Positions 43,048 to 62,945 of a stretch of DNA of 64,000 bases are shown here, piece after piece. Below the pieces are notes generated by a model. The model saw only the letters and a list, made by a program, of their open reading frames with translations. It searched no databases and was not told where the DNA came from. Position 1 is the stretch's first letter. Each line of letters begins with the position of its first letter. The stretch is from Candidatus Doudnabacteria bacterium RIFCSPHIGHO2_01_FULL_46_24 (lineage in GTDB: Bacteria; Patescibacteriota; Doudnabacteria; UBA920; O2-02-FULL-48-8), in NCBI GenBank assembly GCA_001777575.1, contig MFEL01000018.1:8264-72263 (forward strand). The letters are read 5' to 3'. A program made the translations under genes and the position numbers.

Positions 43048-43272
43048 ATGCCCACAGCCAAAACTCGAATCAACGTCAGTTTATCCGATGAATTAAACTC
43101 CGCTTTGAAAAAGTTGGCTTTGCGCGATCAAGTCCCCACCGCCACCAAAGCCGAACGGCTTTTGGAAATTGCTTTGGAAATCGAGGAAGACGAAGTCTGG
43201 GATAGAATCGCCAGGAATCGGCAAGATTCCAAAAGTACCCCTTATCTTACTCATAATCAAGCCTGGAAATGA
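43048..43272 (+). CDS. ribbon-helix-helix antitoxin (RelB/ParD-like)
   Basis: Small acidic protein; 4-bp overlap with downstream RelE/ParE gene. Confidence 0.5.
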   Translation: MPTAKTRINVSLSDELNSALKKLALRDQVPTATKAERLLEIALEIEEDEVWDRIARNRQDSKSTPYLTHNQAWK

Positions 43273-43544
43273 ACTTCGAGATTATTTATCATCCGTTGGT
43301 GGTGGGTGATGATATTCCTAAACTTTCGATTGGGTGGAAAACAAAAATTCAGAAAAAGATTGAAGAACGTTTAACTACTCACCCGGAAACTTACGGCAAG
43401 CCTTTGCGTAGATCGCTGAAAGGATATCGCAAACTGCGCGTCGGAGATTATCGCGTAATTTTTTTATTGGAAAAAAATATTGTCAAAATTCTCGTCATTC
43501 AGCACCGTTCAATCGTGTATGATAGAATTAACAAACGAATATAA
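43269..43544 (+). CDS. RelE/ParE-family toxin
   Basis: KLRVGDYRVIFLLEKNIVKILVIQHRSIVY C-terminal pattern. Confidence 0.65.
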   Translation: MNFEIIYHPLVVGDDIPKLSIGWKTKIQKKIEERLTTHPETYGKPLRRSLKGYRKLRVGDYRVIFLLEKNIVKILVIQHRSIVYDRINKRI

Positions 43545-44753: not shown

Positions 44754-45857
44754 ATGGCGAACAAATCTCATCTCGAGACCGAGATTGACCGGCTTTTGGT
44801 TGCTCGGCAGACCGTGCGGCAAATCGCCAGCAGTCTGGGCATCCCGCGTCTGGTGGTGGAGGAAAGAAAAAAACAACATGTCGCGCGTATTCGCGCGAGG
44901 CGTAGTCTGGGATGGGCATTCCTGGGGCTGACTGCGATTGTGGTCGCACTGGCTATCGAGGTACCGCATCTCTATCGCAGTTTCGAACAAGATTCAATAA
45001 TCGAAGAGTTAAGAAAAACAGCCTTATCGGTCGAGCAAGACAAGCCGGCCGCCACTTCCACTTGGCTGGTCAGCGAGGAGTTCCAAGGTCCTCAATTGCT
45101 TGCAATCAGGGCCGGCCAGATTGATCAACTTGCAGACGAACTCGACCGCAGCGTGGCGCGTGTAGAAGAGATTCCTGAAATCCAGGCCATGATCGCAAAA
45201 TCAGGAAAAAAATTCCTGGTCAGCATCTTTAGCCCGCCCAACGGGATCATGCATATCGCAAAAGAGTCCGAAGCGTTTGATCCTGCCGGAAAGATCGAGG
45301 TCACATTCTTCGGCCCGGCCGGATTCAACACCCCCATAGTCCAAGGCCTTTACCTGTCTTACCAAAGCGGCTTTGGGTCGGTGTTCGTGGCAGCGCTTCG
45401 TTACCCCGACCCCCGCTGGTTCGACGCGTTTCTCTGGCATGAACTGCTACATCGCCAGAAGCATCTCGACCACGCCGCTTCGGCCACCGCGCCTTTCCTG
45501 TCAGACGTTTGGGCCAGTGAAGAAGTGCAGGGCCATGAATTGGCTCGTAAAATCCTCGACCACCACACCCGACAAGCCTATAGCCGCACACTTGCAGAAA
45601 TCGCCCGGAATAAGTGGGCGTGGAGCCTGAAAAACTTCCTACGGCAATTACGCGCGCGCGACCTCGAATCCCTGGAGGACTTGTTCGTCCCGGGATCTAA
45701 GGATGAGTCTCGCTTCCGCAGCTCGCAATACCTGCTAGATTTGTCCTTCGTCTGGCTGAAACAGCGCCAGCAGGGACAGAAGCTGATCCAAGCCAAGATA
45801 GAGGCCTACCGACTGCTTGCCACCAAACTTGGCAGGATATCCCCCTCGACCAGATAG
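44754..45857 (+). CDS. hypothetical protein with N-terminal HTH-like segment and one TM helix, in a GC-rich segment
   Basis: RQIASSLGIPRLVV then LGWAFLGLTAIVVALAI; about 57% GC. Confidence 0.45.
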   Translation: MANKSHLETEIDRLLVARQTVRQIASSLGIPRLVVEERKKQHVARIRARRSLGWAFLGLTAIVVALAIEVPHLYRSFEQDSIIEELRKTALSVEQDKPAATSTWLVSEEFQGPQLLAIRAGQIDQLADELDRSVARVEEIPEIQAMIAKSGKKFLVSIFSPPNGIMHIAKESEAFDPAGKIEVTFFGPAGFNTPIVQGLYLSYQSGFGSVFVAALRYPDPRWFDAFLWHELLHRQKHLDHAASATAPFLSDVWASEEVQGHELARKILDHHTRQAYSRTLAEIARNKWAWSLKNFLRQLRARDLESLEDLFVPGSKDESRFRSSQYLLDLSFVWLKQRQQGQKLIQAKIEAYRLLATKLGRISPSTR

Positions 45858-48212: not shown

Positions 48213-48241
48213 AAAACCGCCCTCTCGGGCGGCTTTTTTTA
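48213..48241 (+). terminator. rho-independent terminator
   Basis: AAAACCGCCC-tctc-GGGCGG-cttttttt. Confidence 0.65.
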
Positions 48242-48336: not shown

Positions 48337-49602
48337 TTATTGCTTCATTTCGGTTATTGGGCCCAGAGGCAATCGGAGGTCATGCTCGTTGGCTGGGACG
48401 ACTTGAGCAAAGCTGTGGCCCCAGGAGAAGAAAACTTCAGCCGAGGGGAAGGCGTAGCGCAGATCCGCGCCTAGGAAATAAATAGTGCCTTTATCATTAA
48501 CCACGCTGCCTCTCGCGTGGCGCTGCGAACCGGTAAATATGCCGGAGCCCAAGGGAAGATTCTGCGTTTGCCCGAGGATGGCATTTTTTGTCTTATATCC
48601 AAATTCAGCAAACACCGGCATGGAAACAAACGGCCGCTTCTTCCCATATTCTATAACATATATCGTGCCAGAGTCCAAAACCAGAACGCCGTCAAGGTAC
48701 GCCGGGGCAGGCGCGGGGGTTGGTGTCGGCGCGGGCTGAGGCGTTGGAACAGGCACTGGGGTCGGGCTACCGCCTCCTCCGCCAGGCGGACTTGGCGAAG
48801 GAGCCGGGGCAGGTGATGGCGCAGGAACCGGTGTTGGTGTTGGTGAAGGAGTCGGGGTAGGCGCGGGACTTGGTGCCGGAGTTGGACTTGGCGCCGGACT
48901 CGGAGCAGGAACTGGTGTGGGCGCTGGAGCCGGTGTCGGAGAAGGAGAAGGCGCCGGATCTGGTGTAGGAACAGGCGCTGGAGAAGGCGCCGGACTCGGT
49001 GCTGGAGTCGGAGAAGGAGCGGGGACAGGCGCCGGAGAAGGCACGACCGCTGCCGTAACCGAAGCGTTAATAACCTCGGACAAAATATCGCTGCCCGAAA
49101 CCGCGACGTTGGAATCATTGGTTTGGCCCGGCGTAAAATCAAAACTTATCGCCCCGGCGCCTGCCTTGAGAGCCTTAAACCGAATTTCCGCCAACGTCTG
49201 GGTGGATATTCCCGTGCCGGACGCAAACAAGGAGAGCTGGACAAAACCCGCCTGATTATCGAAATGATTGGCAAAAATAGTCAGCAGCGGGTCTGCCTTG
49301 ACCTCTTTTACTTCCAGCAATTCCGGATTGAACCTTAAAGAATAGACATCTACGGCATCAGCCGCGACCGTTGTTTCCAAATTGACGTTAAGCCAGAACT
49401 CGTCATTGACCAAAACTTCCTTGCTTGCCGGACTGACGGCGAGTATGGCCTGCCCCACATCGGCGTTGCCAAAATTAAACGAGGTTTTTTTCGCCCGGTT
49501 CGAAAGATTATTCAGGGCAAAAAATGCGGCAACAAAAAATCCAGCCACCAGCATGACCGCGATTAAATTTTTGTATTTCCAAAGCAGGGGTCTCATCATC
49601 AA
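48337..49602 (-). CDS. membrane-anchored surface protein with PT-rich linker and conserved C-terminal domain
   Basis: N-terminal TM; (PSPAPVPT)n linker; C-terminal ~120 aa shared with the 1517-aa protein. Confidence 0.6.
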
Positions 49603-52556
49603 TCGCCGGTTGAATTCCAGTTTGTTCGAAGCAGGGAGTAATCCAGGCTGTTGACGATGCCGTCGCCCGTCAAGTCAGCGCCGGAATCCGCTTGGAACCA
49701 TTTCTGCGCCAATCTTGCGACGTCCAAAGCGTCTATGCGGTTGTCGTTGTTCAAATCCCCGGCTTTCAGGCTGCCAAAATCAACGGTTAACCCCGGTTCC
49801 AAATCGATCCTGACCGCGCGCGACAAGTAGCCGTCGGGTTTAATCACCGCGCGGATCGGCTGGGCCAAAAGATTTATATTCAAGGACTGCCTGCCGGTTT
49901 CAGGGGCTGACAGCTCAAATTCGCCCAGGCTGTTTCCGGATAAGTCGTAAAAAGTGATGGTCCCGGAAGCGCGATGCTGCTGCCGGCCTTGCAAAGTCAG
50001 TCTGACGGCAACCGAGTTCACGATTGGCGGCGGCGGAGGTGGAGGCGGAACAGGTGCCGGCGCTGGAGTCGGAGCCGGTGTTGGAACCGGGGACGGAGAA
50101 GGAATAGGGATGGGAACAGGCGCTGGCGAGGGTTGGGGACTGGGAACTGGCACAGGCTGTGGCGCAGGAACGGGAGCGGGAGTAGGCGTTGGTTGCGGTG
50201 TCGGCTGCGGCACGGGTGTTGGCGCGGGAATAGGAACCGGAACGGGTTGAGGTGTCGGAACCGGGAGTTGCGGAGCGTTGCCGTTAATCTGGCGGAGCGC
50301 CGCCTTGAAACTTTCATCCGGTATGAAATTTTCCGTTGCCCACGGCCAGATTTCAAAGCCAACACTGGCATCCCGGGGATTGATAGTCGGCCCCCACCAG
50401 GCAATCCCCTGTAAGCCGTTTTGCCAGGTCAGATCCGCAAAATATTGCAACTCGTCTGGGTTCGGGGAAGAATCGCCGGAGAGGACAATGCCCTGATGGA
50501 CAAACCAGGCGTCCCGTCCGGCGGCTACCTCCTTGACAATGTTCATTGAAGCAGTCATGGCGCCGGACCAGGCAGAAGTGTTGTGGTCCGGAAAGAAAAA
50601 GTAAGGATAAAAATCCATACTAAAGATGTCGGTCCAATCCCAGCCCCTGATTTTTTCCGCGCTGTCTTGAGATTCATTTTGCCAAACCAACTTGCTCGGA
50701 TAAATTTCCTTAAACAAATTATATCCTTCCTGCATACTTTGCTGATCCCAATCAGTATGACCTAAAGAAACATTTCCACTTACCTCATCAATATTATGAA
50801 TACCCAAAACCCACGGCGAATCAAAGCAAGGCCGAAGTTGATTCAAGGCCTGGCGTTTGTAATCAGCGGAATATTTTTTTTCAAAGGGAACAACAATCTG
50901 CCAAAAAAGATAAGTGTTGGCCGCCGGCGCCTCGGCGATTCTGGCTCGGCAAAACTCGTTGTAAACCTCGAGATCAAAAGCACGGGGCGTGGAATTCCAG
51001 TTGCCAAAAAGAGAGTCTACGCTGTACATCACGACTTTGGCGCCGAAATCATTCCTCAATTCTCCTAATGTTTGAGTATTGTTTCTACGAAACCACGGCC
51101 CCAGCCAAAGCACGGACATTTTTTCCGGAAGTTCATTGCGCACTTTCACGAACACCCGCTTACTGATCTGGGCCCCGCCGGGAGCCTGAGCGGTAATGTT
51201 AAACAAGGTGCTGCTCTGAACCGCCGCGCCGAAACTCGTTCTTCTGGTCACATCAATATTGCCGGGGTTGAGTGTCAGCTTGCTGTAGCCCTGGGCAGCC
51301 CAGGAAAAAGTCACGGTCTCGCCTTTAGCTATCTCTGTTCTGTCCGCAGTCAAAGATTCTATGTCCAAAGGCGGAACGCCGAATTCCGAGATCGTAACCG
51401 TCATGCCTTTCGGTAAAACCAAGCTTCGATACGAAAAATCCCCTGATCCGTCCGCGATTGCCGTAACCGCGGCACCGGTCTGCGGATTATAAAGCAGCAG
51501 GTCAGTTAGGCGGTCTGAATTGATATCAGTGGTGGACACCTGCCAGTTCGCGTCCCAGCGGCCGCGGTGATAATCAAAATCGGCCCTGGATCGGTCAAAA
51601 AGCAAGGTAAACCACGAACCGTTTTGCTTATTGTGCAAAATTAAATCAGCCGCGTTATCGGCGTTAAACTGTCCGGTTATGACAGTCCAACCGGCCGACC
51701 ATTTGCCCGAAATGGCATCAGTGGCAAACCCTTGATCCGTGGAAGTTAGCGCAAACCAATTAGAGGTATCGGACGCCGCTCCGTCCACTTCCGGATTATA
51801 AACCAAGAGATCGGAAAGTCCGTCTTGGGAAAAATCCGCGACAGTCACCTCCCAGCCCGGAGACATTTGCCCGCTTTGGCTGTAATCAAAATCGCTGCCG
51901 CCGGAATCAATGACTTTGTACCAACTGCCGGAAGCTTTGTTGTATAAAAAGAAATCCGTCAGCGAATCGCGGCTGAACCGGCCGGGAAAAATTTCCCAAC
52001 CCGGGGACCAGGCCCCTTGCTTTGGACAACTGAATTCCGACTCGCTGGTCGTAAAACATTCATACCAGGCTCCCGAGCTTTCGTTATATAAAAACAAATC
52101 GGTTTTTTGGTCGCCGTTAAGATCCTGAACATGAGATTGCCAGCCGGGGCTGAAACTGCCCCGATGATAAACAAAACCTTCGGGGGTGCCGATAACTTTG
52201 TACCAGCTGCCCTGTTCAAAACTGTAAATGTACAAATCAGCCAATCCGTCATTATTAAAATTGGCCGCCGAGACCTCCCAACCGCTGTCCCAACGACCGC
52301 TGCTGCGGCCCTGCGGCTCCGCAGATCCTGTGCCATAATTGATGAGCCAATCACCCGTTGATTTATCGTATAAAAAAATATCCAGGGCGTCTCCGAATGC
52401 CGCATTAGACGTGGTGAAGTCCACCGTGATGGCGCGCTGTCGTAAAAATTTAACCCCTAATATTGCCCCCGATCCGGCCAAAATCAAAACAATAGCGCCC
52501 AACGCCATCCGCCCTGCTGGTCCAAGTACGGCAAGCCTGCTCGATATTCTCATCAT
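49599..52556 (-). CDS. large surface protein: FG-GAP/VCBS-like repeats, TIM-barrel glycoside-hydrolase-like region, PT linker, dockerin-like C-terminus
   Basis: Repeated GxWYKV/GSWFTL blades; PVPTPQPVP... linker; C-terminal [16 protein letters not shown]...[16 protein letters not shown] dockerin-type duplicated Ca-binding segment. Confidence 0.65.
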
Positions 52557-52578
52557 ATTTTTTTTGTTTTTTTTGGGC

Positions 52579-55500
52579 TTATTGCTTCATTCCCAACACC
52601 GGGCCGATGGGCAGAGCCAAATCATGCTCGTTGGCTGGGACGACTTGAACAAAGCTGTGGCCCCAGGAGAAGAAAACTTCAGCCGAGGGGAAGGCGTAGC
52701 GCAGATCCGCGCCTAGGAAATAAATAGTGCCGTTGGACTCTACCAGCACGCCGCGGGTATGCCGGGCATCTGATGTGAACAGTCCCTCGCCCGCGGACAA
52801 AACGCTGACGTCAGCTTCGATGACGTTGCGAAGCTTAAAACCCAAGCCCGTGAATACGGCTAAGCTTGCAAACGGCCGCTTTTTGCCGAACTCAATGATG
52901 TAGATGGTGCTGTGGTCCAAAACCAGAGTCCCATCTTTCAGCGCCAAGGTATTGACCGTAACTGTGATATTTTGCGTCACTTGCTGGCCCTGGCTGTTTT
53001 GGGCAGTAAGCGTGTAAGTTGCGGTTGCCGCAGGAGAAATATCCTTAAAACCGGTTAGTACCACGGCCCCGACCCCCTGATTCAACGACACAGATGAGGC
53101 GTTGGCCGTCTGCCAGGTCAGCCTGACTGATTCGCCCTTGTTGATCGAAACGCTTGAGGCGGTAAACTGATTAATTAACGGCTGCGGCACGGAAGTGACG
53201 ACAATCGTGACATTGGCCGAAACAGAAGTTACTGAATTAATAGCTGTCAAAGTGTACGTGGCGGTTTGGCTTGGGGTAACGATAGCCGGGCTTGTACCAT
53301 TGCCGACAATAGTGCTGCCTTGCTTCAAGGTCACAGTTGTGGCATTGGACGTATTCCAAGAAAGCGTAGACGATTGCCCGCTAGTAATCGTCGCCGGAGT
53401 TGCAATAAACGAACTGATAACCGGCGCTTGCGGCTGCGGGTTCACGGTTACCGTAACTGAGCCTGTGACCGACTCGCCGGTGGATGAGGAGGCAGTCAGG
53501 ACATATGTCGAAGTTTGGGTCGGAGAGACTACCACGGATGTACCGCTGCTCGCGATATTGGTTGAACCAAGCTTCAGGACAATATTATTGGCATTGGTCG
53601 TGGTCCAGGAAATCGTGGAGTTTTGACCGGCGGTAATACTGCTTGGATTGGCACTAAGCGAAGTGATAACCGGCTGACCAACATTAACCGTAACGGTAAC
53701 GCTTGACGAAACTTCCTTACTGCCGTTGTTGGCGGTTAAGGTATAAGTCGTGGTCTGAAAGGGACTGACATTCAGGGAATTGGATGGGGCAGTCGAGATG
53801 ATGGCACTGCCGGCTTTCAAGGTCACGGTCGTGGCATTGGAGGTAGACCAGGAAAGAGTAGTACTTTGGCCAAAATTAATGCTTGCAGGCAGGGCGGCAA
53901 AGGAGCTGATGACCGGATTGCCAGGCTGAGGCGCGCTGATGCTGAAATAATTGTCGCTCAAGTCTTCCGCAATTTTGTTACCTCCGTCATAGAGGACGAC
54001 CCGGATGCGGTAATCGGCAGCCGGCGACACTTCGATCAGGCCAGTCTTGCCGCTGTCATAATAATAAGTCTGACCCCAGCCCAAACTCCAAGTGTAGGAA
54101 GCCGCGGTAACGCTCATAGGAGAAGGCACCAAAGCGCCAAGAGTGCTGCTGCCTTTCACCAGTTCAAAATCCAGTCTGGGGTTGCTTAGGCTTGAAATGT
54201 TGGTGATACCAGCAAGAATTGAGAAGGCGGTTTGGGTGCCATCCTCGGTGGCCATGACCAACTGCTCGCCGCCGTTGGGGGAAGTCAGGGTAATGCTGGG
54301 AGTCAGAACATTATTGACGGTTATGGTGTAAGATTTGTTTCCGGAGAGTGATCCGTTACTGGCGCTTAAGGCAAACGTATAGGTTCCGGCCGTAGTCGGA
54401 GTGCCGGTGATATGACAAAAACTCGTGCCCCCGGCACAATCAGTGGTCTGAAGCCCCGGAGGAAGGCTGCCGGAAAGCGTCCAGGAAAATGCGCTGGAGT
54501 ATCCAAGCGGCACAATGCCCATGATCGTTCCGGTATAATAAGTACCCACAGTGCCGTTTGACAAACTGTCTGGCGAGAAGCTGATAACTGGTATGCTCAC
54601 GGTCATGACATTGCCTGGGCCGCCGAAATTCAGAATGGTGCCGCTGGGGTGGCCTGCGGAATAAAACTGCAAAGCAAAAGTGCTGCCCGACTGGGCCGAT
54701 TGGGCCAGGTCAACCTTTATCGCCACGGTTTTGCTGGAATCAGACGGGATGACAAGGCTGAAGTTATTAAAGTCGAGGTAGCAGGTTTTATCGTAATCTA
54801 AGAAAGTCGCCGAACCCAGCACCACTCCCGAGGTGACGTCAGTCAGTGTGGCTTTGCTAAATGCGCAAAATCCCGGTGTGCCTAGGCTAGTGTTGGTGGC
54901 CGCGCCCAAACTAGTCAGGACAAAATCGCCGCCGATTGACGACAGTTTGGTGCGCAGCACTTCCACTCCTGTCATGCCCGGTTGGATGGTTTTGGCAATC
55001 GGCGTGTCCGCAGCAAGCTTAAGGTCAAGCTGAGGGTAAGCGCTGACAATGCTAAACGGCGCGTCGGATTGGTCATAATTGCCGCCGCCATATTGCTTGA
55101 CCACTTGAATATAATAATCCGATCCTGGCGGCACCGTGCTGCCATCTCCCAACGTGCCTACAGATTGCCAAGCTAGAGACGTGTCATAAACCAACGAAGA
55201 CCCAATCCAGCCGTAGGAACTGCCGTTGGCCGCAGTTAAGTGAACTGTATATGCATCTCCGGTTTTATAATTCGAATCCTCCCAGTCAATCATCGCCGCT
55301 GACCCCTTGGTCCAAATCTCGCCGCCGTTTGGCGAGATGATTCGGATTGCCGCTGGCGGCGAGGTCAGGACAGATAATCTAAAATCACGATATGCTATTT
55401 GCGAACCGGATTTGACCTGGACGGTAAAGTTATAATTTCCAGTCGCGGTCGGCGTGCCGGCCAAAACCAGTTGGGTCTGGCAATAAAAATCATCATAGCC

Positions 55501-57132
55501 TAACCCCGAAGGGCACGCCGGATACCAGCCCAAGCCCGGCGGCAGACTGCCGCTTGTGATATTCCATTCATAATAGTAGGCGCCGCCGGTGGCTGCGATG
55601 CTGGCAGAATAAGGCGTGTTGGTGTAAGCCAGGGGCATACTTTGAGTGTAAATCTCCAGCTGAGGAACTTCGAGAATGAATATGCTCGCCGGCAGGAAAA
55701 TCCGCTGTCGCCCGCTTTCCAAGGTCAAAGTGAAGTAGAATGAGCCGGCCTGGGTGGGCTTGCCGTAAAACACGGCCGGTAATTGGTCACATTTGATGCC
55801 GGCGACCAGGTAGCAGTCGATTGAGCGCACAGCCGATGACGGGATGCTTAAATTGGCTGATGACTTTTCGCCCAGCTGCTCAAACACCGGGCAAGGCCAC
55901 TGGATACACTGGACCTGTTCATTGGCCAGATAAATTCCCGGCGGCAACTGGCCTTTGATTCCCCAGCGGTAACTTCCTGAGCCGCCGCGGGCAAACACGG
56001 CGCCTAAATACTGTTCGCCCTCATACCCTAACGGCACATAAATATCCGTGAATTCCAAATTTTCTTCCTGAATCGGAATGACCTTGACGTCCAGGCTTTG
56101 GGAAATCGGCTTTTTATCAGAGGCAAAAACCGTGAGCATAAATAAGCCGGATTCTTCCGGCGCGTACCCAACCAAGCCGGAGCCGGATTCCGTAGCATAA
56201 ATAATCTCAACCGCCGGGTCAGCTTTTTTTTGATAAGACAATTCCGAAGCCGAACCGTTGGATGACCACTTGAAGCCAACTTCATCGCCTTGGCTGATTT
56301 CCCTGGCCGTGGCCGTAAATGAATATATTTGCAATTTGTCTTCTGTCCGCAAAAAATCCGCGGTGCCGCAAAAGACGTTTTGATAAACGTCATTGCTTAA
56401 ATAAACATGGACATTGATCGGGCCGATGCCGGGATGCTTGGCTAAATCCAATTTCGCGAACCAGCCCTGCTCTTTTTCGCCGCGTTGGCCCTGGTACCAG
56501 ACAATGTCATCCTGGCCGTTCTCGGAAGACCAGGTTGGGAAAAAAACAGAAGTCGCGTCTGTGACCCCGTTGGCATAGACCAAAAACTCGCCGGAGGTCT
56601 TGGAAGTTTCCGGAGCTTCGGGTGAGGTGTTTAAGCATGACGGCCACACTGCAGGCGGCGGGCAGCTGCTGGTGTCCAAAAATTGTCGATTAGTAAATAA
56701 AGTATTGCTGCCCGTGGCCGTGTCCTGGGCATAAACCCAGATCTCGTGCGTGGCCCCGTCCTTGAGGTCATCGGGAATTCTGAAGCTAAAGCCGTGCTGT
56801 TCGCTGGCCGGCCTACCCATAAATTCATTGACATCCGGCCGCGCCATGGCCGTGACATCCGCGGCAATCAGGCGACCGATGCCTTCCGGCCCGTCGGCAA
56901 ACACGGCCACGCGCACGGCAGCTTCGGGCGTGTCAGTATCCAAAACCCAACCACTGATCGAGTCACAAGTGGCCAGCTCAAAATTGCCCTCAACGCCATT
57001 GGCCCCGCTGCTCGCTGAGCCGAAATTAAAATCTACAATCCCCTTTTGATCCAAAACGTAAACCAAGCCAACCACATTGGCCATAATCGATATGGCAAAC
57101 CCCATTGCCATAACTTTGGCAAATTTATCCAT
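52579..57132 (-). CDS. giant surface protein (1517 aa) with tandem ~80-aa Ig-like repeats and the shared C-terminal domain
   Basis: N-terminal TM; at least 4 near-identical repeats (PVISSF...[15 protein letters not shown]...YTLTA); C-terminus about 80% identical to the 421-aa protein. Confidence 0.65.
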
Positions 57133-57206
57133 ATATTAAGTTGTTTTTTGTGTTTATTTCTTAGAGAAACGACTTTTATTACATATATTATAGCACACTT
57201 TTCAAT

Positions 57207-57845
57207 TTAGGTCAAGCGAAGAATCAAAAGAAAAGCGATGACGAAGCCGACGATGGTAAACATAATACTGGTGATAAACCACAGCCTGGTATTGCGTTTA
57301 CTGACAACCACAAATTGGTGTTCGAAATCTTCGATAAAATTATCTATTTGTTTGTCGATCTCGCGCGTTTTGAAATTGGTGCGCAAATTGACGCCGTAAA
57401 GTTTTGTTAAGTCTGAGAGCGAAAGAATGCCGACCAATTTGTTCTGCCCGTCCACCACGGGGATGGGATTGACTTTCGGGTCGGCGAACAGGATCGCGGC
57501 GTTCTCGACGTAAGCTTGGGGGCTGATGGTGGTCGGGTGCGGATCCAAGACATCGGAAACTTTCATGGACAGAATTTTTTCCAAATCCTTGCGGATGGGA
57601 TGGTTGCGGTCTTTTTTGTAAAAATTAACTTCTGAAAACAAACGCAGCAAAGTTTTGAGGTGCATGTAGGAACCTTCCGCAATCATGCTCCGCTCAGTCA
57701 GCAATCCTTTGAGTCTTCCAATGTCGTCAATGACTGGCAAACCGGAAAAGCTATACTTGGTTAAAATATTAACAGCATCAATCAAGGCAGTTTCGGGATG
57801 GACCGAAACTACCTTTTGCGTCATGAGATCTTCAACTGTGGTCAT
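57207..57845 (-). CDS. CBS-domain pair protein with C-terminal TM helix
   Basis: Two CBS motifs (VVSVHPETALIDAVNIL, PIPVVDGQNKLVGILSLSDL). Confidence 0.65.
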   Translation of the reverse strand: MTTVEDLMTQKVVSVHPETALIDAVNILTKYSFSGLPVIDDIGRLKGLLTERSMIAEGSYMHLKTLLRLFSEVNFYKKDRNHPIRKDLEKILSMKVSDVLDPHPTTISPQAYVENAAILFADPKVNPIPVVDGQNKLVGILSLSDLTKLYGVNLRTNFKTREIDKQIDNFIEDFEHQFVVVSKRNTRLWFITSIMFTIVGFVIAFLLILRLT

Positions 57846-57855
57846 TATTCACAAT

Positions 57856-58320
57856 TTACTCAACTGTGATCGCGCCTCGACGGGCCGGATTTAGGTGATC
57901 ATGGAATTTCCAAGTGCCTGTTTTGTCGAACGTGAATGCCCAGCTGCCACCGGCGGCGATTCCCTGTTTGGGATCAAACTCGGAATAATCAGTGTGCGTC
58001 GGATGTGGCGCGGACGCCGGCCAATGCAGTCTGTTGTCGTTGTTGACGAATTTCACGCTGTCGCCTTTATTGATGGTCAGCTCAGAAGGTGAGTAGCCAT
58101 CGGCTGTGATGGCGACTGTGACAATTTTGGGCTGAGGAGTTTGAGTAGGCGCCGGCGCTGGAGTGGGCGCCGGTGATGGAGCTGGGGTTGGGGGCGGCGC
58201 AGGAGTTACCGATTGCTCGCTGCCTGGAGTATCTTCTGCCGGGGCTTGCGGTTGCTTATTGCATGCCGCCGCCAGAAAAACTAAGGCGAACAAAGGCACA
58301 AGGATTTTTAATTTACGCAT
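57856..58320 (-). CDS. lipoprotein with PT-rich linker and cupredoxin-like C-terminal domain
   Basis: Lipobox LAAAC; HxH and single Cys pattern suggests a cupredoxin/EfeO-like fold (weak). Confidence 0.5.
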   Translation of the reverse strand: MRKLKILVPLFALVFLAAACNKQPQAPAEDTPGSEQSVTPAPPPTPAPSPAPTPAPAPTQTPQPKIVTVAITADGYSPSELTINKGDSVKFVNNDNRLHWPASAPHPTHTDYSEFDPKQGIAAGGSWAFTFDKTGTWKFHDHLNPARRGAITVE

Positions 58321-60646: not shown

Positions 60647-61570
60647 CTACCCCTGGTCCATCCCCAGATATTTTTCCGCGTCCAACGCGGCCATGCAGCC
60701 CATGCCGGCCGCGGTCACGGCCTGGCGATAGCGGTGGTCGTGGACATCGCCGGCCACAAAAACTCCAGTCACGCTCGTCTTGGTCTGATCAAAAACTTTT
60801 ACAAACCCTTTTTCATCCAGATCAACCTGGCCGACAAATGCATCGGTTGCCGGCTTGTGGCCGATGGCGATAAATGCGCCGCCGATTTTTCGCTCTTCCA
60901 CTTGATTGGTTTTGACATCGCGGATTTTAACGCCGGTCAATTTATCATCGCCCAAAAATTCTTCCACAGTCTTATTGTATTCAACCGTTATCTTGGGGTT
61001 TTGTCTGGCTCTGTCCTGCATAATCTTGGAAGCGCGCAAAATTTCGGTTCGATTCAAAATATTAACTTTCAGCGCGAACTTGGTCAAATAAGTCGCCTCC
61101 TCCATGGCTGCGTCGCCGCCGCCGACCACCACGATCTCTTGGTCTTTGAAAAAAAATCCATCGCATGTTGCGCAGGCGGAAATACCGTGGCCGCGAAGTT
61201 TCTGTTCAGAAGGAATGTCCAGCCATTTATAGCTCGCTCCGGTGGCAATGATGACACAATCAGCCGAATATTGATTCTGGCCCGTATCCAAGAAAAATGG
61301 CTTTTTTTTGAAATCGACTTTGCTCACGTCTTCATAGACGATCTGCGCGCCGAACCGTTCGGCTTGCTCGATCATTTTCTGCATCAACTCCGGGCCCTGC
61401 ACCCCTTTGGGAAAGCCGGGATAGTTTTCCACTTCTGTCGTGGTCATCAGCTGCCCGCCAAAAGTCAGGCCAGCTAAAACTAAAGGCTTAAGTTCCGCTC
61501 TGGCGGCATACAGCGCGGCAGTGAGTCCCGCCGGACCGGAGCCGATTATGATTAACTTATGATGATTCAT
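60647..61570 (-). CDS. trxB: thioredoxin-disulfide reductase
   Basis: FAD motif IIIGSGPAGLTAALYAARA, redox CATCDG, NADPH motif VVGGGDAAMEEA. Confidence 0.88.
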   Translation of the reverse strand: MNHHKLIIIGSGPAGLTAALYAARAELKPLVLAGLTFGGQLMTTTEVENYPGFPKGVQGPELMQKMIEQAERFGAQIVYEDVSKVDFKKKPFFLDTGQNQYSADCVIIATGASYKWLDIPSEQKLRGHGISACATCDGFFFKDQEIVVVGGGDAAMEEATYLTKFALKVNILNRTEILRASKIMQDRARQNPKITVEYNKTVEEFLGDDKLTGVKIRDVKTNQVEERKIGGAFIAIGHKPATDAFVGQVDLDEKGFVKVFDQTKTSVTGVFVAGDVHDHRYRQAVTAAGMGCMAALDAEKYLGMDQG

Positions 61571-61598: not shown

Positions 61599-61958
61599 TT
61601 AATTACTTTTATTAACTAGGGATTTTTCAAGACCAAATAACATTTTCGAGCATTCAGTGTAAGCGTTAATGAAGTAGTGAAAAATTTCTTGACTCATGTA
61701 TTGCTTTTTATAAGCCATGCGCAAATGATGCAGTGTTTCTCTTAATTCGCCTTGCGCCCGGCTGATAGCTTCTGTGTAAATATTCGTATGCTTATTGCCA
61801 AAACCTTCGGCTAAAATCGCTGAAATCGCATTGGATGATCTTCTTACTTGAGAACCTATCTCGTAAAGCTCAAATTTTGGAAATTTCATGGTTAGTTCAT
61901 GAACCTCAAATGCCAACTTAACTAATTTTTGATATACATCAAGATCTTCTACCAGCAT
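61599..61958 (-). CDS. four-helix-bundle protein of the 23S-rRNA-IVS-encoded family (TIGR02436-like)
   Basis: 119 aa all-helical with ...NAISAILAEGFG... core typical of IVS four-helix-bundle proteins; bracketed by repeat blocks. Confidence 0.6.
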   Translation of the reverse strand: MLVEDLDVYQKLVKLAFEVHELTMKFPKFELYEIGSQVRRSSNAISAILAEGFGNKHTNIYTEAISRAQGELRETLHHLRMAYKKQYMSQEIFHYFINAYTECSKMLFGLEKSLVNKSN

Positions 61959-61988: not shown

Positions 61989-62945
61989 CTATTTGATCTT
62001 TTTAATTTCCGTCCAATCCGAGGTTAGGCCTTCCCCGCTTTTTTGCCGCATCAAATAGTCAAACGCGGCCAGGGCTGCGGCTGCGCCTTCGCCGGCTGAT
62101 ATGACAGCCTGCTTATATGGGCGGTTAGTGGCATCGCCGGCCGCAAACACGCCCCTGCGGGAAGTAGCTTGATCAGGTCCAATCATAATTTGCCCCGATT
62201 CATCGAGTTTAACCAAGTCCTTCACAAAGTCCGATTTAACCACGTATCCTAATTCTACAAAAATTCCGGCAATTGGCAAAGACATCCGCTTATTGGTTTT
62301 TAAATCGAGCAACTTCAACTCTTCCACAGATTGACGCCCCTTAATTTCCTCAATCCGGACAAACGGCACGATCTGGACATTTTTTCTGCGCAACAGGGCC
62401 TTGACCAAGCTTGTGTGGCCGATTAGTTTGTCGGTTTTGGAAAGAACATAAACTTTTTTGGCAAATTTGCCGCACAGCAAAGCGGCCTCAATTGACAAAT
62501 CGCCCACGCCAACCACAGCCACACTTTTACCTTTGTAAAACGGCGCATCGCAAGTGGCGCAATAAGACACCCCCTTGCCTTTGAACTCCTGCTCACCCGG
62601 CACATCCAAATCTCTCGGTGTTTTGCCAAAAGCCAAAATAACTGCTGACCCCTTATACTGCTTGCCATAAGCGTAAACAATGAAACTCCCGGCCGCAGAC
62701 TTTATTTTTTCCACTTCCGCCATTTCCACTTGGGCGCCAAAATTGATCGCCTGCGCGCGGACGCTGTTTACCAGATTGTATCCGCCGGTTTCACTGACTC
62801 CGGGATAATTTTCAATCAAATCCGTGGAATTGGCTTGGCCCCCGATATCCTTGGCCAAAACCAAAATCGACAAGCCTCGCCGGGCGGCATAAATCGCCGC
62901 CGAAAACGCCGCCATGCCTCCGCCGATAATAATTACGTTAAACAT
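61989..62945 (-). CDS. second thioredoxin-reductase-like flavoprotein (paralog)
   Basis: VIIIGGGMAAFSAAIYAARRG, CATCDAPF redox motif, VVGVGDLSIEAA. Confidence 0.8.
   Translation of the reverse strand: MFNVIIIGGGMAAFSAAIYAARRGLSILVLAKDIGGQANSTDLIENYPGVSETGGYNLVNSVRAQAINFGAQVEMAEVEKIKSAAGSFIVYAYGKQYKGSAVILAFGKTPRDLDVPGEQEFKGKGVSYCATCDAPFYKGKSVAVVGVGDLSIEAALLCGKFAKKVYVLSKTDKLIGHTSLVKALLRRKNVQIVPFVRIEEIKGRQSVEELKLLDLKTNKRMSLPIAGIFVELGYVVKSDFVKDLVKLDESGQIMIGPDQATSRRGVFAAGDATNRPYKQAVISAGEGAAAALAAFDYLMRQKSGEGLTSDWTEIKKIK

Follow-up and report, generated by a model that had tools for sequence, protein, structure and literature searches.

The 64-kb stretch of DNA analyzed here (64,000 nt of contig MFEL01000018.1; hereafter, the window) derives from Candidatus Doudnabacteria, an uncultivated, ultra-small groundwater bacterium that belongs to the candidate phyla radiation (CPR, or Patescibacteria). 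Its minus strand carries three co-directional open reading frames (ORFs) encoding proteins of 421, 985, and 1517 residues, which we term p421, p985, and p1517. In our judgment, with a probability of roughly 0.55, these genes constitute a three-gene surface-display operon: a minimal, non-cellulosomal cohesin-dockerin system in which a C-terminal module of 119 residues serves as the envelope anchor in place of SLH domains or sortase. According to this model, the three genes would be co-transcribed from one strong promoter, and each product would be exported via its single N-terminal hydrophobic segment. p421 would be the anchor, composed of one cohesin, a Pro-rich spacer of ~120 residues, and the C-terminal module; p985 would be the cargo, whose C-terminal Ca2+-type dockerin would plug into the p421 cohesin. 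The adhesin-like p1517, which is rich in immunoglobulin (Ig)-like domains, would be anchored directly by its own copy of the module. The module itself would most likely bind non-covalently to a polymer of the cell envelope, either peptidoglycan or an attached glycopolymer, and thereby play the part that SLH domains or sortase play for the anchoring scaffoldins of cellulosomes.

We consider p421 first (48337–49602, minus strand, as are all three genes). From its N-terminus, this single-cohesin anchoring protein comprises a signal-anchor, a cohesin-like domain (residues ~41–187; 49042–49482), a Pro-rich linker of 122 residues (180–301; 48700–49065), and the module (48340–48696). The cohesin-like domain matches PF00963 at 22.6 bits, and nine related domains were found among module-bearing proteins (phmmer E values of 1e-12 to 2e-23 for six proteins). 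Seven of the ten members of this family match PF00963 at E < 0.01, the best at 1.4e-10; the domain of one relative, P0027, reaches 35.6 bits. When the family profile was compared with the PDB, it elicited three weak matches, all of them to cohesins (4ums_A, 0.028; 1g1k_A, 0.13; 2vn5_A, 0.14). The UniRef name of p421 is “Cohesin domain-containing protein”. Taken by itself, the N-terminal domain of p421 had no significant match among PDB sequences and none in a word-indexed homologue search. We conclude that residues ~41–187 are a probable cohesin. An earlier reading of this DNA, made from the sequence only, had conceded that its proposal would fall if no cohesin-like partner existed in the genome; p421 has a cohesin-like domain. 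No second cohesin was found in the window, and no carbohydrate-binding module (CBM) in p421.

The putative cargo, p985 (49599–52556), is organized as an N-terminal hydrophobic segment, FG-GAP repeats, an Ig-like domain, an orphan domain of ~285 residues, a Pro-rich linker (residues 765–846), a small beta-rich region, and a C-terminal dockerin. The last of these is a compact, type-I-like dockerin (residues 930–985; 49602–49769): a duplicated segment at the extreme C-terminus whose two Ca2+ loops are EF-hand-like, span 12 residues each (with D/N at positions 1, 3, 5, and 12), and are spaced 27 residues apart. Against PF00404, with a cutoff of 22.9 bits, the full-length protein scores 29.8 bits and the isolated segment 35.1 bits. 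The same layout is found in seven aligned dockerins from neighbor loci; that of L007 fits the regular expression for the loop once only. The dockerin-like segment that had been proposed is thus genuine as judged by these sequence features, and its Ca2+-dependent binding to a cohesin is predicted from genomic adjacency. A tblastn search aligned residues 851–985 of p985 to proteins in the adaptor position of related loci (see below) with 31–33% identity over ~135 residues, which hinted at a conserved X-dockerin dyad. This idea was dropped: the 84-residue region preceding the dockerin had no jackhmmer match on its own.

In the remainder of p985, the FG-GAP region (residues ~50–390; 51387–52409) scores above the Pfam threshold (PF01839, 47.2 bits over three stretches; PF13517, 41.8 bits). 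A strict regular expression identifies four repeat motifs in residues 101–357, and some seven repeats can be counted by eye; the region is likely a beta-propeller, as had been suggested. The same earlier reading had also placed a glycoside-hydrolase-like TIM barrel in this protein. That assignment is unsupported, though not disproved: p985 matched no glycoside hydrolase or other carbohydrate-active enzyme (CAZyme) family, and searches of Pfam, NCBIfam, PDB sequences, and a collection of 5.8 billion proteins returned nothing for the orphan domain (residues ~480–765; 50262–51119). Against PDB sequences, the whole protein returned only matches to its Pro-rich linker and weakly matching dockerin chains. 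Thus, of the “surface adhesion or polysaccharide-degrading complex” that had been envisioned, the dockerin-type surface complex survives, and evidence for glycoside hydrolases or polysaccharide degradation was not found.

Does the pairing of a dockerin gene with a cohesin+module gene recur elsewhere? To address this question, we assembled 24 related loci from the contigs of cohesin+module relatives and from a metagenome scan with their alignment, and we annotated them with hidden Markov models purpose-built for three domains (cohesin, compact dockerin, and module). A recurrent order was evident, on a single strand and with short gaps: one to five dockerin-tagged genes, often a cohesin-only gene of ~215 residues, a cohesin+dockerin “adaptor” (425–707 residues), and a cohesin+module anchor. 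The clearest examples are L023, L008, L006, L011, L025, L024, and L010. Among the ten cohesin+module anchors, that of the window included, the gene directly upstream bears a dockerin in seven, and a dockerin gene lies no more than two genes away in eight. Some of the loci carry cargo with PA14, CBM9, or beta-helix domains. These 20+ metagenomic loci come from Doudnabacteria and from further uncultivated bacteria of groundwater and soil, with no sign of cellulolysis. The window represents a reduced version of the cluster: a cargo (p985), an anchor (p421), and a protein that bears the module directly (p1517). The large upstream protein of L005 likewise bears the module directly, but it has a cohesin as well. 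We infer the pairing of p421 with p985 from the family membership of their domains and from this conserved adjacency of dockerin and cohesin+module genes in other genomes.

The small cohesin-only proteins (~200–220 residues; L008:5779–6429, L010:4252–4917, L012:7272–7913, L019:1114–1761, L023:2724–3380, and L022:1611–2204) are encoded between the cargo and adaptor genes. In most, a basic cytoplasmic tail precedes a transmembrane helix and the cohesin, and several of the tails are rich in His (e.g., WHEHPHHKKVHW); from this arrangement, the proteins look like membrane-tethered cohesins. In L015 and L016, the equivalents of ~211 residues carry a signal peptide in place of the basic tail and transmembrane helix. 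The window has no such gene, and p421 appears to combine the role of the small tethered cohesin with that of the module-bearing anchor. L027 (1–7882) presents five consecutive dockerin genes (276–662 residues), one of which has an internal dockerin (residues 359–412 of 631), followed by a cohesin gene truncated at the contig end.

The spacing of the three genes in the window is tight. The gap between p1517 (52579–57132) and p985 is an A-rich spacer of 22 nt, and the first ATG of p421 overlaps the stop codon of p985 (TGATG). A near-consensus candidate for a sigma-70 promoter (57187–57215, minus strand) lies ~55 nt upstream of the p1517 ATG; it reads TTGACC-17-TATAAT, includes an extended −10 TG, and agrees with the consensus at 11 of 12 positions. 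Approximately 105 nt past the p421 stop codon, a GC-rich hairpin (GCCGCCC-GAGA-GGGCGG; 48217–48232) with T-runs on both strands is a candidate bidirectional terminator that would close the operon. Given these consensus matches and the gene spacing, a three-gene operon is the simplest reading; the operon of three surface proteins posited earlier is borne out insofar as the ORFs are real and co-directional. An Rfam scan of the operon detected no RNA families. Each of the three proteins has one hydrophobic segment, located at its N-terminus, and no other, in agreement with the N-terminal transmembrane anchors that had been assigned to them. The long Pro/Thr/Ser linkers ascribed to all three are present in p421 and p985 and absent from p1517.

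The 119-residue module that would anchor this system ends both p421 and p1517 (52582–52938 in the latter), as had been noted for a domain of ~120 residues; the two copies align without gaps at 66% amino-acid identity, and no third copy exists inside the window. Neither these copies nor any of 85 homologues belong to a Pfam or NCBIfam family, and a word-indexed homologue search with the module retrieved only a fragment of p1517. An exhaustive HMMER profile search, on the other hand, returned 1,718 representative clusters at E ≤ 1e-3 (901 at E ≤ 1e-10). It had been proposed that the domain be sought on other surface proteins of the genome, and in this much wider search its fusion partners are extracellular and diverse: Big_7, fn3, beta-helix, RGI lyase, PA14, cupredoxin, FG-GAP, cohesin, and polysaccharide deacetylase. 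Among 128 module proteins starting with M, a hydrophobic segment is present at the N-terminus in 98. In 97 of 150 proteins the module stops no more than 15 residues short of the C-terminus, and in 35 it is internal or N-terminal; multiple copies are common, with as many as 16 matched stretches in one protein. SpoIID is a domain of peptidoglycan-remodeling enzymes, and a SpoIID/LytB-domain protein with three full modules (residues 478–847) is encoded by an Actinomycetota metagenome-assembled genome (MAG) (MGH2813229.1; P0049/P0162). This fusion demonstrates that the module is not limited to CPR bacteria. A scan of GTDB genomes, which relies on near-exact peptide patterns, yielded one locus (L003; DASPKQ010000096.1, 1381–3528) from a MAG labeled Verrucomicrobiia. 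It encodes a beta-helix, a Pro-rich linker, and a module 60% identical to the Doudnabacteria module, and the protein much resembles the Doudnabacteria protein P0016; the locus may be a mis-binned contig or a transferred gene.

An AlphaFold2 model of the module, calculated from an alignment of 59 sequences, had a predicted local distance difference test score (pLDDT) of 97.7 and a predicted template-modeling score (pTM) of 0.88. It shows two repeats of ~55 residues, each with a beta-beta-beta-alpha-(alpha)-beta topology. In a Foldseek search of the PDB, the only significant matches were to the periplasmic domains of EccB1, EccB3, and EccB5 (E values of 6e-4 to 3e-2; probabilities of 0.72–1.0); in BFVD, single repeats matched uncharacterized actinophage proteins with root-mean-square deviations of 1.6–3.1 Å. 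At the level of sequence, no Pfam match, to the EccB family (T7SS_ESX1_EccB, Pfam PF05108) or any other, was obtained even at E ≤ 10. The module profile likewise found no EccB among PDB sequences, where its sole hits were beta-hairpin alignments to designed “Pizza” propellers, none of them significant. EccB1 has four repeats, each consisting of a four-stranded sheet and two helices (PMC4769845), and these repeats are weakly similar to PlyCB, a cell-wall-binding phage subunit (PMC4769845). The module has two repeats and lacks the EccB-type central domain. Pfam annotations that had been precomputed for the ~21 kb surrounding the operon include no Ecc or ESX family.

Eight of the nine anchors outside the window have a classic AxA signal-peptidase site (...AxA|ATLxLSP) directly before the cohesin. 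In those proteins the signal peptide would be cleaved, leaving the module as the only retention device of the mature protein. From these cleavable signals and from the logic of cellulosomal scaffoldins (PMC12484212), a non-covalent, envelope-binding anchor is the best-supported model for the module.

Several observations weigh against the anchoring model, and they should be considered together. First, the promoter and terminator of the operon are consensus matches only. Second, the PF00963 score of the p421 cohesin falls just under the 24.1-bit cutoff, and a single-sequence AlphaFold2 model of the whole of p421 (pLDDT of 41) was unusable. Third, the global TM-scores of the module against EccB are low, owing to a different arrangement of the repeats, and the failure of the sequence profile to reach EccB places the modeled likeness at the level of the fold only. 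Peptidoglycan binding by EccB is itself a hypothesis only (PMC4769845), and a search of IMG/VR for phage lysins bearing the module turned up no relatives. Finally, in the window, p421, p985, and p1517 have long N-terminal h-regions with no AxA site; on these grounds, they appear to keep their N-terminal membrane anchors. A module acting as a second self-anchor would then be partly redundant, which leaves room for another role.

That other role, the main rival to the anchoring model and one that matters especially for the window, is that of an outward-facing, lectin-like adhesin tip. The N-terminal anchors would hold the proteins on the cell, and the Pro-rich spacer (p421) or the Ig stalk of 1,350 residues (p1517) would hold the module at a distance, where it would bind the wall or glycans of a host or prey cell, or an environmental polysaccharide. 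We regard this as a serious minority prospect. If the window proteins are signal-anchors, as is probable from their h-regions, the module would be distal. Cultivated CPR bacteria are epibionts (PMC10633639), and an essential dockerin-domain envelope protein of Saccharibacteria has been proposed to target host glycans (PMC10633639). The fold's occurrence in actinobacterial EccB and in the actinophage proteins is also compatible with a tip, and cellulosomal scaffoldins may bear substrate-binding CBMs (PMC12484212). The cleavable signal peptides of the cohesin+module proteins in most other loci argue in the opposite direction, however: a module bound to a foreign surface would leave a cell-free assembly there unless it were tethered by the membrane-bound cohesins of ~215 residues. 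Moreover, merely 14–44 residues separate the cohesin from the module in P0043 and P0027, and the SpoIID fusion in Actinomycetota fits the binding of a cell's own wall.

The module could instead be a domain for protein-protein interaction or oligomerization (with an S-layer, a pilus, or itself) rather than for glycan binding. EccB repeats do sit in a multiprotein complex, and no carbohydrate-binding family matches the module. We nevertheless deem this improbable, as the arrays of up to 16 stretches and the promiscuous fusion to unrelated secreted cargo typify wall- or glycan-binding repeats, and no conserved partner gene other than the cohesin and dockerin genes is found beside module genes. 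Less probable by far is a C-terminal secretion or sorting signal, removed by machinery like that acting on T9SS CTD, PEP-CTERM, or LPXTG signals; the frequent C-terminal location, often after a Pro-rich linker, is as expected for one, but the module is a stable double domain that in about one-quarter of the homologues is internal, N-terminal, or multicopy, and the termini of the window proteins (...GPITEMKQ and ...GPVLGMKQ) show neither an LPXTG motif nor a hydrophobic or charged tail. Because the module is so often internal or repeated, a cleavable sorting signal is unlikely; we see in it instead a folded, EccB-like double repeat that behaves as a binding or anchoring module would. Of the “sorting or interaction domain” suggested earlier, then, the second half is retained.

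The two module copies in the window are paralogous segments 4.2 kb apart, and their relationship at the nucleotide level is unusual. A tract of 110 nt (48380–48489 in p421; 52622–52731 in p1517, module codons 70–106) is 99.1% identical; the single mismatch, at 48407/52649, exchanges A for V. Outside the tract, the copies are only 52% identical. The sequence-only reading had described a 109-nt block differing at one base within an otherwise diverged domain and had attributed it to recent gene conversion, and the description and the attribution both held. Among degenerate codons for the same residue, 34 of 34 are identical inside the tract and 15 of 41 outside it (Fisher p = 6.5e-10), a pattern that selection at the protein level cannot yield. 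Thus, the tract is shown statistically to be a recent gene-conversion patch between the two copies. It overlies the best-conserved stretch of the module family, in repeat 2, which is where homology-dependent exchange is easiest; conversion would have copied the 110 nt between the two modules over this part of the repeat. Two strain variants (P0156 and L002) either stop short of the tract or show no difference in it, and they are therefore silent on the timing of the event.

An assembly chimera, or selection on an embedded nucleotide-level element, would be the alternative explanation of the tract, and a collapse artifact had been raised as a danger from the outset. The source assemblies all seem to be short-read metagenomes, and the tract coincides with the best-conserved protein segment of the family. 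Yet the identical p1517 sequence has been deposited from three MAGs and occurs on 13 contigs; for p421, a 419-residue form has been deposited from two MAGs and a 420-residue form is found on 14 contigs. Exact matches of sequence assign the window to Candidatus Doudnabacteria MAGs of the Rifle aquifer, namely GCA_001779995.1 and its relatives. Two ENA contigs reproduce the p1517 tract (one with 100% identity over 1,158 nt, the other with two mismatches), and the tract falls short of the k of 141 that contig L001 carries in its name (k141_719895). On these grounds an assembly artifact is unlikely. Both ORFs remain in frame, no Rfam family is found at the tract, and amino-acid conservation cannot account for the synonymous codons; taken as a whole, the alternative has very little to recommend it.

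The third protein, p1517, is a giant adhesin-like protein. It is ordered as an N-terminal hydrophobic anchor (residues ~7–29; 57046–57114; likely a signal-anchor), an N-domain (residues ~45–150; 56683–57000), a GBS_Bsp-like repeat, two He_PIG domains, a sub-threshold Kre9_KNH-like domain, four Ig-like repeats, and the module. The tandem Ig-like repeats (residues 1073–1397; 52942–53916) are ~81 residues each; the expected count of at least four copies of ~80 residues is correct, but they are 37–59% identical in pairwise comparisons and not “near-identical”. Domain scans detected no cohesin, dockerin, or Pro-rich linker in p1517. The notion that it is the scaffold partner of the dockerin accordingly fails, the cohesin-like domain being found in p421. 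The N-domain, which is uncurated and has no Pfam match, is a further candidate for a new family: its pattern of ~100 residues (GW..D.D ... RPDVN ... G..GNHGF.F..P....DG.H.I.VYA.D) recurs in many surface proteins of related clusters, including P0007, P0010 (two copies), L006:6049–6327, L008:8778–9044, and L005:1571–1783. A motif shared by all three window proteins follows the N-terminal hydrophobic segment: VDFNFGSA in p1517 (57020–57040; residues ~32–38), TSFNFGNA in p421 (49470–49490; residues ~39–45), and a related stretch of 12 residues in p985 (52410–52440; residues ~40–50). The motif may serve all three in processing or as a juxtamembrane element, or it could reflect plain paralogy.

Some neighboring genes merit brief description. 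Adjoining the cluster upstream is a gene for a 212-residue protein with CBS domains and a C-terminal transmembrane segment (57207–57845, minus strand). The candidate operon promoter overlaps the 3′ end of this gene, which is also kept upstream in the unrelated metagenomic locus L006 (2845–3483). Two genes upstream of the operon lies that of a cupredoxin-like protein of 154 residues (57856–58320, minus strand) whose N-terminus is of the lipoprotein type (…LAAAC) and which has a Pro-rich linker; in P0013, from a related organism, a cupredoxin is fused to the C-terminal module. Farther away, an ORF of 119 residues (61599–61958, minus strand) resembles, by eye, the four-helix-bundle “23S rRNA intervening sequence protein” family and is flanked by ORFs that look like thioredoxin-reductase paralogues (60647–61570 and 61989–62945). 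On the other side of the operon, a putative toxin-antitoxin pair, made up of a ParE-toxin gene and a small partner upstream of it, abuts ychF (~43048–43544, minus strand; from the annotation of L004:16053–16549). Between ychF and rpsF is an ORF of 367 residues (44754–45857, plus strand) that contains a single internal hydrophobic segment and has no recorded Pfam family.

Assembly by cohesins and dockerins is textbook cellulosome biology, and such systems, including non-cellulosomal ones, are already known. To our knowledge, the established routes by which they are anchored are SLH modules and sortase only. “Novel anchoring mechanisms” are named as an open problem in a recent review (PMC12484212). 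In the literature, we found no description of the cargo-adaptor-anchor clusters of this lineage, of the membrane-tethered mini-cohesins, of the module family, or of its fold-level link to EccB. It is possible, and we advance the idea tentatively, that the 119-residue double repeat represents a large, uncatalogued envelope-binding family that would be a third anchor, besides SLH and sortase, for a hierarchical cohesin-dockerin machine of CPR bacteria with adhesin-like and orphan cargo instead of cellulases, maybe the apparatus by which these epibionts cling to, or act on, a host cell. The candidate anchor has a high-confidence predicted fold and at least 1,718 sequence clusters, with no Pfam or NCBIfam entry, and it belongs to a conserved type of gene cluster, with cargo, adaptor, and anchor genes, in 20+ metagenomic loci. 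Given the structural link, finding the ligand of the module would inform the EccB field as well. For CPR biology, the proposal offers a concrete, testable model of how surface proteins are organized on contact-dependent cells, and the module and the compact dockerins of ~55 residues are possible parts for the engineering of surface display.

How does this locus compare to known systems? Its closest counterparts are the anchoring scaffoldins of cellulosomes, such as ScaB, ScaC, and ScaF of Clostridium thermocellum (cohesin(s), linker, SLH) and ScaE of Ruminococcus flavefaciens (cohesin and a sortase LPXTG signal) (PMC12484212). Common to both are a secreted cohesin, a flexible linker of the Pro/Thr type, a C-terminal envelope attachment, and partners with C-terminal Ca2+ dockerins; the related loci are tiered in the same manner, with a cargo dockerin, a cohesin+dockerin adaptor, and an anchor. 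In contrast, no SLH domain was matched in the operon proteins, and p421, which also lacks LPXTG, has a module resembling EccB repeats in that position. With a single cohesin, no CBM, no detectable glycoside hydrolase or other CAZyme cargo, and no SLH or sortase attachment, the locus is not a cellulosome; its cargo instead combines a beta-propeller with Ig-like domains and an orphan domain, and its host is a reduced-genome CPR bacterium, not a cellulolytic Firmicute.

The EccB repeats R1–R4 of mycobacterial ESX (type VII) secretion (4kk7, 3x3n, 5cyu, and 7np7; PMC4769845) resemble those of the module in their length of ~55 residues, in their build of a four-stranded sheet with two helices, and in their association with the cell envelope. 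The module differs from EccB in having no detectable sequence similarity to it, no central domain, and no four-repeat pseudo-symmetry, and it is a mobile unit on many cargoes rather than part of a secretion machine. In its terminal position, tandem copies, diverse secreted fusions, and one SpoIID fusion, it is comparable to the non-covalent wall-binding repeats of Gram-positive systems (SLH, LysM, CWB2, choline-binding repeats, and the phage subunit PlyCB), none of which match it in sequence. Non-cellulosomal cohesin and dockerin modules are scattered across Bacteria and Archaea, and were reportedly surveyed by Peer et al. in 2009. The pair from Archaeoglobus fulgidus is one example (PMC12484212). 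The locus described here is like these in belonging to an organism without sign of cellulose degradation; unlike such scattered modules, it is part of a set of conserved, co-directional clusters with a hierarchy of adaptor and anchor and, if the model is correct, a dedicated new anchoring module.

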